DNA from: a virus
Virus record (IMG/VR): IMGVR_UViG_3300035698_017588
Coordinates: 31,002 to 95,001 of that record
Reading direction: 5' to 3' (one strand)
Length of the DNA stretch: 64,000 bases
This document shows positions 58,272-64,000 of this stretch, piece after piece; the stretch's first letter is position 1; every line of letters starts with the position of its first letter. The position numbers were made by a program, and so were the translations under genes. The notes beneath the pieces are model-generated. The model was not told the DNA's origin. It made no database searches and saw only the letters and a list, made by a program, of their open reading frames with translations.

Positions 58272-58604
58272 CTATCTCCCATATTTCCGAACTTCCTCGG
58301 TCCAAGATGCAGCAATCTCAGACACTTCCTTCTTATATTCCTCAGGCGACGGAGGAACCAACAACTTCGACCAATGCGTGTAATAGTTCTCAATGAAATC
58401 GTCATCAAGGGGAGTTCCAACCCATGGAGCCTCTTCGATGGGGCATCGCCACCAAACCACCGGCCCGAAATCCTCATGCCAATCATCAATATCATACAAC
58501 ACCTGATAATCACGCAAACAATCAGGGTCCGAACCAGGAGAAGGATAATAAAGACTCATCGACCCGACTCCACTTGGGACAACCCAACAACTTGACCAAT
58601 CCAA
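58272..58604 (-). CDS. Hypothetical phage protein
   Basis: DWHEDFGPVVWWRCPIEEAPWVGTPLDDDF..YTHW. Confidence 0.6.
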   Translation of the reverse strand: MDWSSCWVVPSGVGSMSLYYPSPGSDPDCLRDYQVLYDIDDWHEDFGPVVWWRCPIEEAPWVGTPLDDDFIENYYTHWSKLLVPPSPEEYKKEVSEIAASWTEEVRKYGR

Positions 58605-58803
58605 TTGTGCTTAAAATCATTAACATTGATCTTCTTACCCAATGCCATTGGATCAGTCTCAATGTTCGAGGTCATCATCGTCGCCGACTTTTATTAGTGC
58701 GACCGCCAGTGCGTCGATGATTCGTCGATCGCGATCTGTCCGCAGCGGCGGTGCCTGCTTCGCCCTTTCGTGTGGCATCATCATGTTTTGATTCCCGGTA
58801 GCC

Positions 58804-58893
58804 GCACAACAACGATGATGCAAACGACGGGCGGCATACGTCGAATACAATGGTTAATCTTCTATCGCCCGCGTTTGATCACGAGCGTTCTCT
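58804..58893 (+). repeat. attC-like site 1
   Basis: gcacAAC..GATGCAAACG..CGTTTGATC-acgagc-GTTctct. Confidence 0.75.
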
Positions 58894-59204
58894 CTCTCTA
58901 CTTGCGGCTTTTCGCAAGCCAGCGGAGCCACGCTAAGTGCCACCGCAATTCACGTTCTTCCACCCGCGTGACCGCATTGTCTTCGCAAAATTCTCTGATC
59001 GTCATTACGGCCTCAACGGTGTCCACCACCCCTGCGAATCTCCGTATTGTGCCATCCACGCTGTCACGTTGACCAACACGACCCCAAATAGCCACGCACT
59101 ACCGCCGACGCAAAACACATTCCATCCAATGAGTACGCCCGTTTTTGCGATGGTTCTCCACGGCCAATCTTCGATCGGTGTCCCCCTTGGCGGATCGTAC
59201 GGAT

Positions 59205-59429
59205 TCATTGCTCGTCTTCCCTTGCTGCTCGCTTGTATTCTGCGTTGCATGGCTGGCAATACTCGGCGTCTTCGATTCCGTGTTCGCACACTTCCTCTGG
59301 ATTGTCCTGCATCCACAATTCAAGCTCAACAATTGAATCGCTGATTGATTCGGCCTTGTGCGTGTGTGGTCGCCATTCTTGTCGACTGTTGGCTTCGTCG
59401 TCAAATACTACTAAAACTGGCTTGCTCAT
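59205..59429 (-). CDS. Small hypothetical cassette protein
   Basis: MSKPVLVVFDD..CEHG..YCQPC; followed by further small overlapping minus-strand ORFs down to 58898. Confidence 0.55.
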   Translation of the reverse strand: MSKPVLVVFDDEANSRQEWRPHTHKAESISDSIVELELWMQDNPEEVCEHGIEDAEYCQPCNAEYKRAAREDEQ

Positions 59430-59441
59430 TGGTTTCTCGCG

Positions 59442-59461
59442 GCTGAACAAAAAATTGGTGA
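59442..59461 (+). repeat. Left half of an attC-like site, cut by the IS right end
   Basis: gctgAAC-aaaaa-ATTG resembles the start of the 62428 site (tgcgAAC-aaaaa-ATTG); no right arm found. Confidence 0.5.
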
Positions 59462-59670
59462 GTAAACATCCCCACGGATAAATCCGGGGGCTTTTGTGAA
59501 TAACCTCAAGCACAATTCCCAAAGGCAGTGCCGTCAACGATTCGTCGTGCGATTTGGTGGTTGTTAGTTCTCCTGTAATTGGCCTCATCTTTGGACAGGG
59601 ATTTAAGCCGACGCTTTGCCGACTTTGTTCCGACAGATTGAAGAATGTCCCGGCGAGCCTGAAACCAAAC

Positions 59671-60183
59671 TCATTTGGCCTTAAGCTCGTCGGCGGGAAA
59701 AGCATTGCCGTCGGAATCGACGGCAATCTTAGCTACGCCGAAATCGACGCTGAGTACGCTACTGGAAACATCCTTCGGGACGTCATCGAGCTTGATCGAA
59801 ACAAGCAAGTAGAAAACGCCTTTTACGTAAACCAAGTCAGCCTGGTCGCCTTTAATTGCTTCCTGCAACCGAGACTCTTGATAGCCAGCGATCACCATTG
59901 GAATTACAAGTCGGCCGTCAAGCGACCCAAGGCTAACATGCGTCAGCCCCTTGAATCGCATAATCCGTTCGTCATAGACAATGGTAGATTGCTCGCGAAG
60001 ATCGCGGTAGCAAAGGCGGTGGATGCTGGGCTGCGAAAACACCTTGGCATCAAAGCCGACCTTGGCATCAAAGCCGACCTTGGCGGCGTGACTAGCCGAC
60101 AGATAGAACGCCTTGAAAGTACGCAACAATGCGTCTTTCTGGGTGGCGTCAGGAAGCAATTTGATTTTGACGGTGAGTTGCAT
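59671..60183 (-). pseudogene. tnpB: Truncated TnpB
   Basis: MQLTVKIKLLP..QKDALLRT, GDQADLVY..FYL, RuvC-I VLSVDFGV..IAVDSDG; RuvC-II, zinc finger and RuvC-III are missing. Confidence 0.8.
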
Positions 60184-60189
60184 ACGAGA

Positions 60190-60217
60190 ACTATAGCCAG
60201 ATACGTTCATAAGTCAA
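60190..60217 (-). promoter_or_regulatory. Putative sigma-70 promoter for a leaderless tnpB transcript
   Basis: TTGACT-16 nt-TATAGT, with 6 nt between the -10 box and the ATG. Confidence 0.5.
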
Positions 60218-60316
60218 GCAGGTTGTTTATTTCTTCGGGATAGCGAGGTTTTCGATGACCGCCGGGAGAATCAATCGACTTTTAGGATCAATGTTGGCGT
60301 CATCTGGTTACACGAG

Positions 60317-60409
60317 TTGGAACAAGCGGATGCACCGATCCGCGTTAAAATTGGTTTGGTTTGAAAGTTTGAGTCTACCGTGGCAACCCGGTAAACATTA
60401 GCGTTAGGT
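60317..60409 (+). repeat. attC-like site 2 (arms pair poorly, probably chimeric)
   Basis: ttggAAC-aagcg-GATGCACC..GGTAAAC-attagc-GTTaggt. Confidence 0.7.
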
Positions 60410-60895
60410 GGACGACGGCTGCACGATACAATCGTCGCAACGTTCAAACGCCGATTCGGTTGTGCCATCGCAATCGGGGCAAACCCACTTGCCGCTTGCG
60501 GCGTCGTTGGCTTGCTCACACAATCGGCGGCACTCGCTTTCGACATACGACTGCGACCGCACCACACCATCGACGAAATCCGTCGAAGTCCATCCGCGAT
60601 TGTTCGGCAGGTCTGGGTCTCTCGCATCCCAAGCGTGAGCGCAATCAAATCCGACCCACCACGCATCGTCGTCGCCCTTGCCGCAATCCGTATCCGGCTG
60701 TGAAAACGTGCAACCGCCGTGAACGTCCACGGGTTGCTCCATCGTTTCCACGCCGTGCCACGGGTGACCCTTCGGAACGCGGACGTATCCGCACCGATAG
60801 CCGCCGTCGTTGTGGACAACCTGCCACTCGAAACCTAAATGCTCACCCTTTGCCAAGACGCAATCTGGGCGGGAAATCGCAACGCTTAAACACAT
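60404..60895 (-). CDS. Cassette gene: conserved phage hypothetical protein
   Basis: CGYVRVPKGHPWHG..VHGG.TF..WWVGFDCAH; stop codon inside the R' box; AGGAG RBS inside the next R'' box. Confidence 0.8.
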   Translation of the reverse strand: MCLSVAISRPDCVLAKGEHLGFEWQVVHNDGGYRCGYVRVPKGHPWHGVETMEQPVDVHGGCTFSQPDTDCGKGDDDAWWVGFDCAHAWDARDPDLPNNRGWTSTDFVDGVVRSQSYVESECRRLCEQANDAASGKWVCPDCDGTTESAFERCDDCIVQPSST

Positions 60896-60902
60896 GTCGC
60901 AC

Positions 60903-60991
60903 TCCTAACAATTGATTGCACCGATTGCCGTCGATGCGTGTTTGAAATGGTTAATTTCACCGTCGGCAATCGGTGAATCAATGCGTTACGA
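60903..60991 (+). repeat. attC-like site 3
   Basis: tcctAAC-aattg-ATTGCACCgattgccg..cggcaatcGGTGAAT-caatgc-GTTacga. Confidence 0.9.
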
Positions 60992-61291
60992 CGACGACTT
61001 CCGCTCGAAGTGCATCGTCATTTGATCGTCGCTGAATCCTGTCGGTGTGATGTCGCTATCGGGATTGCACGTATGCCAAGCGAACAGCAAATCTTTCGCT
61101 GCTGCAATGTGGACGAACTTTTTCGTGAACCACTGAAAGTCGTCAAACCACTGCCGGGGTGATCGATCTTTCTCTGGGCCGTTCCAAAACAGCCCGTAGT
61201 AAACTTCGCGGAACAACACGTCACCGCCAATTTCTTGGTGCAATGCGGACAGCACCGCTTCCACCACTTCTGTTCTGCTTTTCGTAATCAT
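60986..61291 (-). CDS. Cassette gene: hypothetical protein
   Basis: ATG 61291 with AGGAG RBS; TAA inside the R' box. Confidence 0.65.
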   Translation of the reverse strand: MITKSRTEVVEAVLSALHQEIGGDVLFREVYYGLFWNGPEKDRSPRQWFDDFQWFTKKFVHIAAAKDLLFAWHTCNPDSDITPTGFSDDQMTMHFERKSSS

Positions 61292-61314
61292 GTCATCTCC
61301 TGGATAGGTCGCGA

Positions 61315-61404
61315 TCGTAACAATGGGTTGCACCATGTCGGGCTTGCACGTCTTTTCGCAATGGAGAGTCAACCGTCCCGACACGGTGAACCCAAGCGTT
61401 CGTC
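61315..61404 (+). repeat. attC-like site 4
   Basis: tcgtAAC-aatgg-GTTGCACC..tgtcggg..cccgaca..GGTGAAC-ccaagc-GTTcgtc. Confidence 0.9.
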
Positions 61405-61978
61405 ATACCGAGCTTGCGGCTGCCAACTCGATGTCAACCGTTTCGTTGTCGTATGGATTGTGACCTATCCACCTGATGTTTTTGAGACAATACGTTTTGC
61501 AAAGATACTCGGTAATTCGCTGCATGATCTCCGCCGTTGGCGGCCTCCACGCCGTTTGAAACTCAATCAAAATCGGCGAACCGTCGCCCCCAAGTTCGTG
61601 GACTTTCAATCCGTAGGTGCCCCATTTGGTACCCCACTCTTTCGTTTGCCAGTCAAACCAATCGGCTGCGCCGTGCTTGGAAAACAGATCGGTAATTTCA
61701 TCTTCGGTCAAAGCAACTCGCTCCCACTGGTCGCGTTCATCGTGCTTGGGTCCGTTGCAATCTTTCGACACTTCGCCGCTAGTCTTGTGGACATAGCGGC
61801 ATTTCGGATTTGACGCGACAATGCCAGCTAGCTCATCTGGCAACTTTGACATCAACTCGCAAAGGTTTGCACCCTTCAGCGACTCGAAATCAATCTCGTC
61901 GTAATCCTCTTTGCCGATGGCTTCGAGTGCGAGCCAGTCTCTAGCACAAAGCCCAATGGTCAGGAAATTGTTTGGCAT
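61403..61978 (-). CDS. Cassette gene: DUF1281/YubB-like ferredoxin-fold protein
   Basis: MPN start, DWFDWQTKEWGTKW, FQTAWRPP. Confidence 0.78.
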   Translation of the reverse strand: MPNNFLTIGLCARDWLALEAIGKEDYDEIDFESLKGANLCELMSKLPDELAGIVASNPKCRYVHKTSGEVSKDCNGPKHDERDQWERVALTEDEITDLFSKHGAADWFDWQTKEWGTKWGTYGLKVHELGGDGSPILIEFQTAWRPPTAEIMQRITEYLCKTYCLKNIRWIGHNPYDNETVDIELAAASSV

Positions 61979-61994
61979 CTATTGGTCCTCGGAT

Positions 61995-62086
61995 GACGAA
62001 CAAAGCGATGATGTGGATCGCTCGTTCAATGTTGTTTGGTTTGGTCAATGTCTTTCGCTCGCGACCACATATCGCAAGCGTTCGCA
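61995..62086 (+). repeat. attC-like site 5
   Basis: gacgAAC-aaagc-GATGATGTgg..ccACATATC-gcaagc-GTTcgca. Confidence 0.9.
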
Positions 62087-62089
62087 GGA

Positions 62090-62410
62090 CTAAACCTGCA
62101 CAACCAAAACCTCTTTGCCTGCCAGCGGGTTCGGCATCGCCGCATATCGCTTCATGGCCGCTTCGTTTTCTTCGACCGTCATCTCTCGCAACGGGTAATC
62201 TCCGACGTGGCTTGGATCGTGCTGGCCGTCCCAAAATCGCTCGTCCGTTACTTGCTCTCGCAACCAAGGCTCCACGGCTCGCATCACTCGCGGAATCATG
62301 TGCGTCATGATTCCGCCGTCACGGGTGATGAAATCCAAGTCCTGATAGATGTCCTGCATTTTCGTATGCAGCTTGCTGGTTGTAAGGTTTCTCAATCTCT
62401 GAATGTCCAT
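62090..62410 (-). CDS. Cassette gene: hypothetical phage protein
   Basis: AAGGAG RBS then MDIQRLRNLTT.KLHT..DIY..THMIPR..PWL. Confidence 0.7.
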   Translation of the reverse strand: MDIQRLRNLTTSKLHTKMQDIYQDLDFITRDGGIMTHMIPRVMRAVEPWLREQVTDERFWDGQHDPSHVGDYPLREMTVEENEAAMKRYAAMPNPLAGKEVLVVQV

Positions 62411-62427
62411 GTCAAAACTCCTTAGCC

Positions 62428-62518
62428 TGCGAACAAAAAATTGCATCGAAGTCGCGGTCGTGCTCTTTTCAAATAGTTAGGTTCATCGCCGCGACTCGAT
62501 GAATTTTAGACGTTCTGC
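62428..62518 (+). repeat. attC-like site 6
   Basis: tgcgAAC-aaaaa-ATTGCATCgaagtcgcgg..ccgcgactcGATGAAT-tttagac-GTTctgc. Confidence 0.88.
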
Positions 62519-62836
62519 TTACGACAAAACACGAATGGCCTGGAACTCCCACAGACCTGTAGGGTTGAATCGCCATCGGAAATACTCACCTTCTTCGTCG
62601 CGGTCCCAATTGTCTTCGTCGCAAATCCATTCGCGAACGGCACCATCAACGAAATCCGTGCCGGTCAGTTCGATCAATTGCGACATCGCTGCATGTCCAG
62701 ATCCACACAACTGCGATACACGAATCTCCCCAATCTCGACAAGCAACCACGACGATAACGCGGCCTCGCCGTCGGTTAACGGGTTGACCGTCGAAGTAGA
62801 ACAAGCCGTTGGATGCGGATCGGCGGGAGAATTCAT
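62519..62836 (-). CDS. Cassette gene: hypothetical protein starting inside the attC loop
   Basis: AAGGA RBS and ATG (MNSPADPHPTACST) lie within site 7. Confidence 0.55.
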   Translation of the reverse strand: MNSPADPHPTACSTSTVNPLTDGEAALSSWLLVEIGEIRVSQLCGSGHAAMSQLIELTGTDFVDGAVREWICDEDNWDRDEEGEYFRWRFNPTGLWEFQAIRVLS

Positions 62837-62906
62837 TCGTGATTCCTTTAAGTCTTTTGGTTTGCAGAATTTCTTCATCGCCGACCGATCAACGGCAGCG
62901 TTAGGA
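62796..62906 (+). repeat. attC-like site 7
   Basis: gtagAAC-aagcc-GTTGGATG..tcggcg..cgccga..GATCAAC-ggcagc-GTTagga. Confidence 0.82.
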
Positions 62907-63149
62907 TGACGAAAACACCGAGCGAAGAACGCCAGCAACGTCGCCAATGATCTGGCGTTGCTGCTCTGGGATGCTGCCCAGATTGCTTAACAGCGTCAAC
63001 TCCTCAACGGCTCCATCCATCCTCTGTTGCAGACCGGGTATCTTCGCCAGTCGTCCGTGTGGGCTGTCTGGCTTGGCGATAAACAACGGCCAATCACCGG
63101 CAATGCCGGGTGCCATCGCCTTTTCTTCGGTAACGTAAAAATCTGCCAT
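62901..63149 (-). CDS. Cassette gene: hypothetical protein
   Basis: 82 aa filling the cassette; TAA in R'; AGGA RBS from the next R''. Confidence 0.65.
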   Translation of the reverse strand: MADFYVTEEKAMAPGIAGDWPLFIAKPDSPHGRLAKIPGLQQRMDGAVEELTLLSNLGSIPEQQRQIIGDVAGVLRSVFSSS

Positions 63150-63157
63150 GGTCGCGA

Positions 63158-63248
63158 TCCTAACAATTGATCGATCCCGTTTGCGGTCGAGATCAATTGG
63201 TTGAGTTTAGTTTTCCCGCCGCAAAACGGGATAATCAAAGCGTTATGC
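63158..63248 (+). repeat. attC-like site 8
   Basis: tcctAAC-aattg-ATCGATCCcgtttgcgg..ccgcaaaacgGGATAAT-caaagc-GTTatgc. Confidence 0.85.
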
Positions 63249-63465
63249 GGATTTACGTTCCGCGTCTTTTTCGAGCGTGGTCTTGAATCCGAAATTGCCC
63301 GCAACGTGAAAACACACAACGCCTTCGGGGCGCATGAATCCCGGTGCGGCCTTGCTGCCGTTGGCTCGCAGTTCCGCCAATGCCTGCGAAGAGGGAACCA
63401 AACGTTAAAGGCGTGCTAACAAAGTCATGAACCGGAGCAACCGGCAACGTCTCTTTTGTATTCAT
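63243..63465 (-). pseudogene. Deletion-fusion remnant: C5 DNA methyltransferase N-terminus joined out of frame to an RNA-ligase-like C-terminus
   Basis: LTFGSLFAGIGG (MTase motif I), then in another frame (63377-63243) AELRANGSKAAPGFMRPEGVVCFH..FKTTLEKD..* with TAA in R'. Confidence 0.65.
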
Positions 63466-63503
63466 AATAACTTTCGGTTGCCCGGTTATGACAAGCGTTC
63501 ATC
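63414..63503 (+). repeat. attC-like site 9
   Basis: tgctAAC-aaagt-CATGAACCggagcaacc..ggttgcccGGTTATG-acaagc-GTTcatc. Confidence 0.9.
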
Positions 63504-63507
63504 GGAC

Positions 63508-63948
63508 CTACCTGTAGTTCTCTATCGCCTTGAGCAATTCGGGGCGAGGTCCAAAATCCCGAATATTCAACTCGATGTCGCGTTTCGACATCCACAACCA
63601 TTCACCGTCGCAGGCGACCCTAGCCGCCTTCGCACCTCTCGCCTTGCGACGATGGTTGAACTCGATGAACTCAAACACTGGTTCGCTGCTCAATGCGATC
63701 ACCTCCTCGACTCGCCGATCGTAGTCCGATTGTGCTTTTCCCAAATCTCGGAACTTGTTCGCGTCCGCAATCTGGCCGTTGTCGCGAAAGTCCCATACGT
63801 GATACGTCGTCCAGTTTGCGTGTTCCCGTCCTTCCACGACGCGATCAAACCATACCTCCTCTCGCATCGTGCGACCATTGAAAAATTGCCGAACTGTGCT
63901 GCAATCGTCGTTCGTCATGTGTCGGCCAAAAATACTTATCTCGCTCAT
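63508..63948 (-). CDS. Cassette gene: hypothetical protein
   Basis: AGGA RBS then MSEISIFG; fills the cassette. Confidence 0.65.
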   Translation of the reverse strand: MSEISIFGRHMTNDDCSTVRQFFNGRTMREEVWFDRVVEGREHANWTTYHVWDFRDNGQIADANKFRDLGKAQSDYDRRVEEVIALSSEPVFEFIEFNHRRKARGAKAARVACDGEWLWMSKRDIELNIRDFGPRPELLKAIENYR

Positions 63949-63966
63949 GAAATTTCCTGACGGCAC

Positions 63967-64000
63967 GATGAACAATGCGATGATGCCGATCGCTCGTTCA
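63967..64000 (+). repeat. attC-like site 10 (cut by the window edge)
   Basis: gatgAAC-aatgc-GATGATGCcgatcgctcgttca, nearly identical to the left arm of site 5. Confidence 0.85.

Follow-up and report, generated by a model that had tools for sequence, protein, structure and literature searches.

The window, a stretch of 64,000 nucleotides from a large-phage record of 95,001 bp, ends in a cassette array that makes up the last 5 kb of the record (58.8-64.0 kb). On balance we favor the view that this is a genuine cassette array without an integrase or attI (a CALIN), that it is of an attC family travelling with phages, and that it is joined to a large phage. The array holds nine complete attC sites and a tenth interrupted by the contig end. 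In make-up these are eight intact sites, one degenerate and one truncated, accompanied by one insertion-sequence remnant and one decayed cassette. The analysis established the structure of the sites, the cassette boundaries, their polarity, their kinship with IntI-linked arrays and the lack of an integrase in cis. The kind of array, integrase-less cassettes in phages, is already known (Qi et al. 2023, PMC9892861); because phage integrons and CALINs have been published, the phage-side integron system proposed in the first-pass annotation is not a new kind.

attC sites and cassette genes

An arm-alignment scanner was run over the whole 95,001-bp record. It returned eight strong sites, every one within 58.8-63.5 kb, and none scoring 9 or more in the remaining 89.5 kb of phage sequence. 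The sites were also scored with a covariance model, R1, made from 15 sites of another assembly that adjoin a true IntI (alignment A5). In A5, 18 of the 19 stem pairs covary, with changes on both sides, and the observed value was reached by none of 500 shuffles; 91.9% of cells are paired, against 64% when shuffled and 30-40% with the partner slid. On the + strand R1 gave the eight window sites 46.6-69.6 bits (E 1e-9 to 6.5e-16), against at most 12.4 bits at the same places on the - strand, and it had no matches elsewhere in the record.

58804-58893, + strand: attC site 1, 90 bp; R1 47.9 bits, E 4.6e-10; extra bases g and a in the 5' arm
59441-59457, + strand: remnant of a disrupted attC, an orphan R'' with left-arm stub GGCTGAACAAAAAATTG; partner arm absent, no site here by R1
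60317-60409, + strand: attC site 2, degenerate, 93 bp; R1 14.7 bits; arms not complementary, from two different sites
60903-60991, + strand: attC site 3, 89 bp; R1 56.4 bits
61315-61404, + strand: attC site 4, 90 bp; R1 55.5 bits
61995-62086, + strand: attC site 5, 92 bp; R1 60.4 bits
62428-62518, + strand: attC site 6, 91 bp; R1 64.3 bits; 83% identity with an attC of L052, an IntI-bearing phage
62796-62906, + strand: attC site 7, 111 bp; R1 49.9 bits; three extra bases by the scanner
63158-63248, + strand: attC site 8, 91 bp; R1 46.6 bits
63414-63503, + strand: attC site 9, 90 bp; R1 69.6 bits; 78% identical to an attC of phage L058
63967-64000, + strand: left arm of a tenth attC, interrupted by the contig end; near-identical to the left arm of site 5

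Nine complete sites of 89-111 bp had been counted before, and the same lengths were measured here; they fall in the defined range of 57-141 bp. In all nine the inverse core ends in AAC and the core starts with GTT. The hairpin has the L box, asymmetric spacers of 5 and 6 nt, and one arm with an extrahelical g and a at a distance of 6 bp, a pattern of extra bases also found in the class 1 control. Beyond GTT/AAC, each R' matches the next R'' at 4.44 of 6 bases as against 1.88 for non-neighbours (0 of 100,000 permutations reached this value, p<1e-5), with complementarity absent from the adjoining pairs S1/S2 and S8/S9. The matching claimed in the first-pass annotation was thus reproduced, and together with the covariance model it supports the claim that the sites are set out as cassettes. 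Rfam at gathering scores had a tRNA as its sole match in this window. The repeats were confirmed at the sequence level as integron attC sites, and recombination by IntI is predicted for them.

At least two attC in one orientation with no intI nearby define a CALIN, and the array has eight strong sites, all +. The window had been said to lack an integrase; TIGR02249 and PF00589 found no match over the whole 95-kb record, neither an integron integrase nor a tyrosine recombinase. The motif AAC|AAYTTATT of attI was not found at 58.5-58.8 kb either, so that the array is not a complete integron.

58898-59432, - strand: three overlapping small ORFs of 35 or 65 aa, 67 aa (membrane-like) and 75 aa, in one interval
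59671-60210, - strand: TnpB/Cas12f-like N-terminal fragment, 179 aa, an insertion-sequence remnant inside the array
60404-60895, - strand: 163-aa cassette ORF; PHROG 2164, E 3.7e-26; exact protein on three other contigs
60986-61294, - strand: 102-aa cassette ORF, fitting its interval; AGGAG 5 nt before ATG
61403-61978, - strand: 191-aa cassette ORF of a widespread, function-unassigned family; 82 homologs, family on 12 viral contigs
62090-62410, - strand: 106-aa cassette ORF with a DUF7736 domain; Pfam PF24875, E 7.6e-12
62519-62836, - strand: 105-aa cassette ORF, ATG in the loop of site 7; exact protein on five contigs
62901-63149, - strand: 82-aa cassette ORF; exact protein on five contigs
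63249-63413, no strand assigned: decayed cassette, a short interval lacking an intact gene, with no complementarity between its two ends
63508-63948, - strand: 146-aa cassette ORF; exact protein on five other contigs, the longest of 47,448 bp

The description of mostly one ORF per interval holds apart from 58894-60316, with the three small overlapping ORFs and the TnpB-like fragment, and 63249-63413. The 65-aa form of the small ORF is recorded in other assemblies. A family match was found for none of the three small ORFs and not for the 102-aa ORF. The 179-aa fragment matched PADLOC Cas12f (E 1.9e-7), NF040570 (E 1.6e-3), TIGR01765 (E 3.8e-3) and PHROG 506 transposase (E 4.3e-5). The cargo had been called phage-like, which is right for part of it: two of ten ORFs match PHROG families, and members of the 191-aa family are present on 12 IMG/VR contigs. 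The boundaries of the 191-aa gene, GTTCGTCAT and ATGACGAAC, also enclose it in L001 and L002.

Gene orientation and integrase-bearing phages

All the cassette genes in the window are on the bottom (recombining) strand, the reverse of the class 1 control. Of 30 intervals, 27 had their longest ORF on the bottom strand, as did 16 of the 17 intervals on IntI-bearing viral contigs. The strand was read from the extra bases, which are in the 5' arm of the + strand with a spacing of 6 bp; Nivina et al. describe extra bases on the L'' side spaced 6 bp. These bases adjoin the gene stop in the class 1 dfrA14 control, whereas in the window they adjoin the gene start. The canonical cassette layout, in which the gene is on the attC top strand and its stop adjoins R''/L'', was therefore not found. 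Here the attC end contains the stop of one gene and provides the following gene with its ribosome-binding context and start. In the case of the 163-aa ORF, GTTAGGAG is followed by 6 nt and ATG, and the stop TAA is inside the neighbouring R box.

Because the genes are on the folding and recombining strand, they run towards attI and intI. A search for both beyond 64000 had been advised, but the polarity of the sites puts them to the left of 58804; judged by this polarity, the missing attI and intI should have been at 58.6 kb, the point at which phage genes set in. The usual picture of integrons is of bacterial devices with cassette expression driven by the attI promoter. With genes opposite to the canonical strand that promoter is unable to express them, and the reversed-gene phage attC family would imply expression from the far end of the array or phage transcription. 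The cassette genes are co-oriented with the neighbouring phage genes, and the two would share one leftward reading direction.

The same attC family and layout were found beside a true IntI and the attI motif in at least five IMG/VR phage records. In L052, L053, L056, L057 and L058 IntI scored 267-310 bits, and R1 scored 28-83 bits on their arrays; terminal repeats are present in two of the five, three are rated 100% complete, and L056 has a terminase. IntI-linked attC arrays occur in complete phage genomes of ~40 kb. IntI of L006 scored 311 bits (cut-off 265), and its first cassette is bounded by GTTACCATG and CATGGTAAC. The attI junction AAC|AAYTTATT is common to all IntI-bearing records, and the window sites are 78-83% identical to attCs of IntI phages. 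The unrelated phage L014 has one cassette of the same family with phage genes on both sides. The family was met with phage records and not in the genomes searched, and by its distribution it appears to belong with phages and to travel with them. The earlier suggestion that an IntI from elsewhere serves a phage-side system gains from the IntI found beside this family in complete phage genomes.

The junction with the phage

58272-58559, - strand: last conserved phage gene, 95 aa; PHROG 34095; conserved from end to end in L032, a distant relative
58560-58803, - strand: junction zone, with a 40-aa ORF (58556-58678) and a 41-aa ORF (58659-58784, leftmost cassette)

The array is probably, though not proven to be, physically part of the phage, as far as the contigs allow us to infer. 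The stop of the 40-aa ORF overlaps the start of the 95-aa phage gene, and genuine phage sequence extends to 58,557 or beyond. Two relatives, L030 and L031 (94-97% identical), diverge at 58463-58465 and have other genes at the locus; the scanner and R1 found no attC at all in the nearest relatives. Gene content at the locus varies among relatives; an invariant gene order is what the first-pass annotation had named as counting against its reading. Its claim that the phage shuffles cassettes was not supported, as the nearest relatives are without the array altogether and show no reordered cassettes.

Could the large phage lack cassettes, the record being an assembly chimera with an array piece from an integron-bearing temperate phage, plasmid or host in the same sample? 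The array is terminal, the contig stops within a repeated attC arm, near relatives have no array, and an exact pattern crossing the junction is absent from all other records of the collection, all of which would fit such a join. Yet identical proteins from 36.3-58.56 kb and from 60.4-63.95 kb have the same longest contig, of 47,448 bp, whose ends are unlike those of the 95-kb record, so that genes identical to those on either side of the junction are together on a second contig. Another longest contig, of 16,131 bp, goes with the two small ORFs nearest the junction, a point for the chimera; therefore the 47-kb contig may differ beside the junction. The G+C content climbs from 0.44 to 0.52 in the terminal array, which would also suit a chimera, but relatives in two other metagenomes have a different G+C-rich ORFan block at exactly this place, and for this reason we regard the rise as a trait of the locus. 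Moreover, the two parts have no visible repeat in common where they meet, their genes point the same way, and the junction is bridged by overlapping small ORFs. Taken together, these data make a chimera unlikely, if the most serious of the alternatives.

It is more doubtful still that the record is an integrated prophage with 58.7-64.0 kb as the sedentary chromosomal integron of its host. There is a published precedent in the Vibrio anguillarum prophage p16, the array is open-ended in length (by inference at least 19 kb), and the polarity of its attC sites points to the phage side as the place of the missing attI and intI. Against this, the 95 kb hold no integrase or recombinase, and the replication and recombination module of the carrier is T4-like and of virulent type (UvsX, a gp41-type helicase and SbcC). 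The relatives diverge at different points, 58,465 and 58,557, not at one att site, and the attC family goes with phage records, not with the genomes searched. That the repeats are attC-like intergenic hairpins (terminators or REP-like elements) is hardly credible: the lack of IntI in cis would agree with it, but the same family stands beside a true IntI and attI in at least six records, R' and R'' of neighbouring sites complement each other, the extra bases have the canonical geometry, one cassette recurs elsewhere with identical boundaries, and terminator-like sites are not enriched over shuffles.

For an array joined to the phage, we propose that its attI-proximal end, with attI and intI themselves missing, abuts the phage, a large one of virulent type, at a variable edge of accessory genes. 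Recombination with an integron-bearing phage or a host element may have brought the array to this recombination-prone locus, and its cassettes would be movable only if a co-resident integron-bearing phage, a prophage or the host provided IntI in trans. The sequence ATTGTGC at 58604-58610 is a possible cassette boundary, and its TTGTGC is complementary to R'' of site 1; the base before TTGTGC is A, where G is expected at G|TT. Insertion by IntI at attG sites (consensus G|WT; Loot et al., bioRxiv 10.1101/2022.09.11.507474) is a possible way for cassettes to enter a genome without an att site. This secondary-site route is not supported here, because the candidate boundary is A|TT.

Relation to known integrons

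Qi, Rajabal, Ghaly, Tetu and Gillings (2023, Front Microbiol, PMC9892861) reported phage CALINs with at least two attC each, TJE1 having three. In the cases described there, as in the window, attC cassettes are in phage DNA with no intI nearby, virulent phages are among the carriers, the cargo is mostly function-unassigned and a trans integrase is proposed. Unlike TJE1, the window has nine attC and a partial tenth, and its array is probably longer. In contrast to those CALINs as that paper presents them, the window genes are all on the bottom strand, the site family is tied to IntI phages, and the carrier is a large-phage fragment known from metagenomes alone. The paper also covers complete integrons in temperate phages, namely Vibrio anguillarum p16, Shewanella M16-3 and P1 with class 1 integrons (PMC9892861). 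L052, L053, L056, L057 and L058 resemble these in holding IntI, attI and an array, whereas the window is without IntI and attI; in these relatives the cassette genes run to intI on the same strand, while the p16, M16-3 and P1 cases are described with the usual orientation.

With sedentary chromosomal integrons and class 1 cassettes the window shares the R''/L''/L'/R' order, spacers of 5 and 6 nt, extra bases 6 bp apart and G|TT boundaries, as well as attCs that resemble one another along the array and cassettes with a single small promoterless gene each; it differs from them, by the class 1 control, in having its genes on the opposite strand. The phage family shares with the inverted integron-integrase group (Treponema and others) a common strand for intI and cassette genes. 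In the Treponema-type group, however, intI is inverted, is read in the direction of attI and has the cassettes downstream, whereas in the phage family the polarity and position of intI relative to attC are canonical and the cassette genes are flipped.

A wider reading, which we put forward only tentatively, is that a large phage of virulent type banks at least 19 kb of swappable accessory cassettes, within a phage-specific network in which the recombining strand carries the genes and reading proceeds to attI; IntI and attI would be encoded by small temperate phages, and integrase-less phages in the same hosts would borrow IntI. Given an attC family that lives in phages with its genes reversed, cassette capture may be part of the phage trade in accessory, possibly counter-defence, genes. 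The complete IntI-bearing phage genomes offer matched integrases and attI, with which strand choice and trans-mobilisation are directly testable at the bench. As for its length, the array probably continues past the contig end, and we infer at least 19 kb.

attC sites and cassettes at the contig end

The source, an IMG/VR virus record, is 95,001 bp long, has no terminal repeats and is rated 27% complete by CheckV. Because the window (bases 31002-95001) runs to the last base of this record, the cassette array at window positions 58804-64000 lies at its very end. The array has nine complete attC sites of 90, 93, 89, 90, 92, 91, 111, 91 and 90 bp and a tenth that is cut off by the contig end; further cassettes are expected beyond it. 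We searched the whole record with a scanner that aligns both attC arms inward from AAC and GTT, and obtained eight strong sites, every one within 58.8-63.5 kb. It returned no attC sites from the 89.5 kb that are phage DNA. Because the window's sites, aligned with MAFFT, yielded only a poor consensus fold, we used a covariance model (R1) built from 15 attC sites that come from a different assembly, the MAG G001; in the alignment behind R1, compensatory changes occurred at 18 of 19 stem pairs. On the + strand, R1 gave eight window sites scores of 46.6-69.6 bits; on the - strand their scores did not exceed 12.4 bits, and the rest of the record held nothing further. The site at 60317-60409 is degenerate, with an R1 score of 14.7 bits and arms derived from two different sites. 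The nine-site array proposed in the first-pass annotation is thus borne out by the scanner and R1 (eight strong sites) and by site lengths of 89-111 bp. The complementarity that it had described between each R' and the next R'' was also upheld: neighbours matched at 4.44 of 6 positions and other pairings at 1.88 of 6, and none of 100,000 permutations reached as high a value.

Most cassette proteins remained without a name in Pfam, NCBIfam, PHROGs and PADLOC. Two of ten ORFs matched PHROG families to which no function is assigned, and one cassette ORF contains DUF7736. Apart from a transposon fragment, no cassette ORF matched a defence model. The family of the 191-aa cassette protein has 82 relatives and is found on 12 viral contigs. 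Part of the array is decaying: it holds a fragment of a TnpB/Cas12f-like protein, the orphan stub of a left arm and a hybrid site, and one interval is empty. One region looks like the scar of an insertion sequence:

Window 59441-60409: scar-like region inside the array, with an N-terminal fragment (179 aa) of a TnpB/Cas12f-like protein, the stub of an orphan attC left arm, and a hybrid attC with unpaired arms

We also noted that a 105-aa cassette ORF (62519-62836) has its start codon within the loop of an attC, the 111-bp one at 62796-62906, so this site holds both a gene start and a recombination structure.

Orientation of the cassette genes

According to Nivina et al., the extrahelical bases belong to the L'' arm (the 3' arm of the bottom strand, which recombines) and are separated by a 6-bp stem. 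In the window sites the + strand has an extra g and, six pairs further in, an extra a, both in its 5' arm; by this geometry, + is the top strand. The same scanner was run on a class 1 integron as a control, in which the extra bases of dfrA14 were g and a, in the arm adjoining the stop codon. Unlike in dfrA14, the extra bases in the window adjoin the gene start.

The cassette genes are all on the - strand. Each is preceded by GTT, a run that resembles a Shine-Dalgarno sequence and a few spacer nucleotides (GTTAGGAG, 6 nt and ATG in one case), and the stop codons of several fall inside the next R box. When the window and the G001 contigs were taken together, 27 of 30 intervals had their longest ORF on the bottom strand. 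Since the genes lie on the bottom strand while the attC top strand is +, opposite to the dfrA14 control, the cassette genes are reversed relative to those of bacterial integrons.

Phages with integrons and with CALINs (attC clusters without an integrase) have been published, and phage attC sites recombine with IntI1 in assays (PMC9892861); this array therefore belongs to a known kind. It differs from the published phage CALINs in size (PMC9892861), and from published phage integrons and CALINs in its carrier, a large phage of virulent type, in the uniform reversal of its genes and in its link to a family of complete phage genomes that bear IntI. The arrangement observed here differs from that of the published 'inverted integrase' group, whose intI has been flipped so that it reads towards attI. 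Our literature search turned up no account of arrays whose genes all lie on the bottom strand.

Phages of the same attC family with an integrase

G001 encodes a true integron integrase on a 4.8-kb contig; its TIGR02249 score is 311 bits, where the cut-off is 265. A junction, G/TTACCATG, lies ~70 bp upstream of the IntI start and the first attC starts with CATGGTAAC, so that the first cassette is bounded 9/9. On this platform the attC top strand is directed away from intI, as in class 1, and the cassette genes run towards intI. The 191-aa cassette also occurs in G001, at 73-76% identity, with the same boundaries GTTCGTCAT and ATGACGAAC and other neighbours. G001 is labelled Microbacteriaceae, and its 41 attC matches are on the short contigs C221, C158, C106, C32, C282, C261 and C200. 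Its integron contigs are probably mis-binned mobile DNA. A host chromosomal integron of the G001 lineage was rejected, as 40 G001 relatives lack the attC family save for one weak match and a phage- or plasmid-type replication initiator adjoins intI on the IntI contig.

Scanning IMG/VR with an alignment of IntI homologs revealed more than 500 viral stretches encoding a relative, the seven best of which were 51-60% identical to the G001 IntI. In five of these seven records (L052, L053, L056, L057 and L058) IntI scored 267-310 bits, above the curated NCBIfam cut-off. Two of the five have direct terminal repeats, three are rated 100% complete, and L056 encodes a large terminase subunit (E 7.8e-112). 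Together with L055, L052, L053 and L056-L058 are IMG/VR contigs of 18-44 kb with arrays of the window's attC family, and all six share the attI junction AAC/AAYTTATT. R1 scored the IntI-linked viral arrays at 28-83 bits, on the strand directed away from intI, and the genes were on the bottom strand, running towards intI, in 16 of 17 intervals. Two window sites, 62428-62518 and 63414-63503, were 83% and 78% identical to attC sites of two IntI-linked phages.

Read along the gene strand, the order in the IntI-bearing phages is cassettes, attI, intI, and in the window it is cassettes followed by phage genes, in one direction throughout. The absent attI/intI platform would therefore lie at 58.6 kb. 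The first-pass annotation had proposed to search for it beyond 64000, at the wrong end of the array by this polarity.

An unrelated phage contig (L014), which encodes a tape-measure protein and exonuclease VIII, contains a decayed integron with phage genes on either side:

L014 11300-11990: attI motif, truncated intI start, one attC and one cassette, bounded 9/9 by GTTCGTCGG and CCGACGAAC

L014 also carries a member of the 191-aa family, without flanking attC sites.

Probable linkage of the array to the phage

The phage DNA extends to ~58.6 kb and encodes a helicase, an SbcC-like protein, HNH endonucleases, a giant tail-fibre-like protein and a DHH phosphoesterase; the 31 kb upstream of the window encode a UvsX-like recombinase, a DnaB/gp41-type helicase and a polymerase fragment. 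The first-pass annotation had seen no integrase in the window, and we detected neither an integron integrase nor any tyrosine recombinase in the entire 95-kb record. In the window, a tRNA was the sole Rfam match at gathering scores, and promoter-like and terminator-like sites were not above shuffled expectation. G+C stays within 0.39-0.485 as far as 58 kb, beyond which it is 0.50-0.53.

Single-protein searches of IMG/VR gave no close relatives of the phage, and a metagenome scan was the sole source of those used here. Two metagenome contigs, L030 and L031 (94-97% identical to the phage), match it up to 58,465, inside the last conserved phage gene. Past this breakpoint, L030:1-5580 and L031:1-3341 share a block of small same-strand ORFans that is richer in G+C, with an extra 1.6 kb in L030. 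These variable blocks showed no attC, no family matches and no likeness to cassette arrays. A distant relative keeps the last phage gene to 58,557 and diverges after it. The matches to 58,465 and 58,557 indicate that the phage DNA is genuine up to a point ~50-250 bp short of where the first cassette features lie. Within the lineage this locus varies, and the rise in G+C there is not peculiar to this record.

Exact look-ups in JGI, Logan and ENA of proteins from the phage (36.3-58.56 kb) and the cassettes (60.4-63.95 kb) gave 3-5 contigs each, of which one of 47,448 bp was in every case the longest. For proteins from 13-30.6 kb the longest contigs were others, so the ends of the 47,448-bp contig differ from those of the 95-kb record. 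From these look-ups, the 47,448-bp contig must cross the junction and continue for at least 19 kb to the right of it, which takes it 14 kb or more beyond the end of the window. Taken with the different, G+C-rich block that the relatives carry at the same locus, this makes it unlikely that the assembler joined unrelated phage and cassette DNA into a chimera, although the exact junction patterns occurred in no other record of the viral and metagenome contig collections and the 41-aa and 65-aa ORFs of two junction-proximal cassettes had a longest contig of 16,131 bp, unlike their neighbours. The 16,131-bp result reflects either differing gene calling or other cassettes at that place in the 47-kb contig. 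That the array is instead flanking host DNA next to an integrated phage is quite improbable, given that no integrase was detected, that the replication genes are of virulent type and that relatives diverge at differing coordinates, not at one att site. We consider it probable that the array is truly part of the phage.

A variant of the small ORFs at 58556-59095, at least 90% identical, was found in JGI on a 10,114-bp contig. The differing longest contig in this stretch may represent cassette-level polymorphism adjoining the phage.

No attI motif was found at the junction. TTGTGC at 58605-58610 is complementary to R'' of the first site and could, as a weak lead, mark the start of the leftmost cassette; a 6-mer match in that span is expected by chance about once in 20. 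The base preceding it is A, and IntI products keep a G there (attG consensus GWT). Insertion by IntI at a secondary site was therefore rejected, and we favour entry of the array by a route other than IntI.
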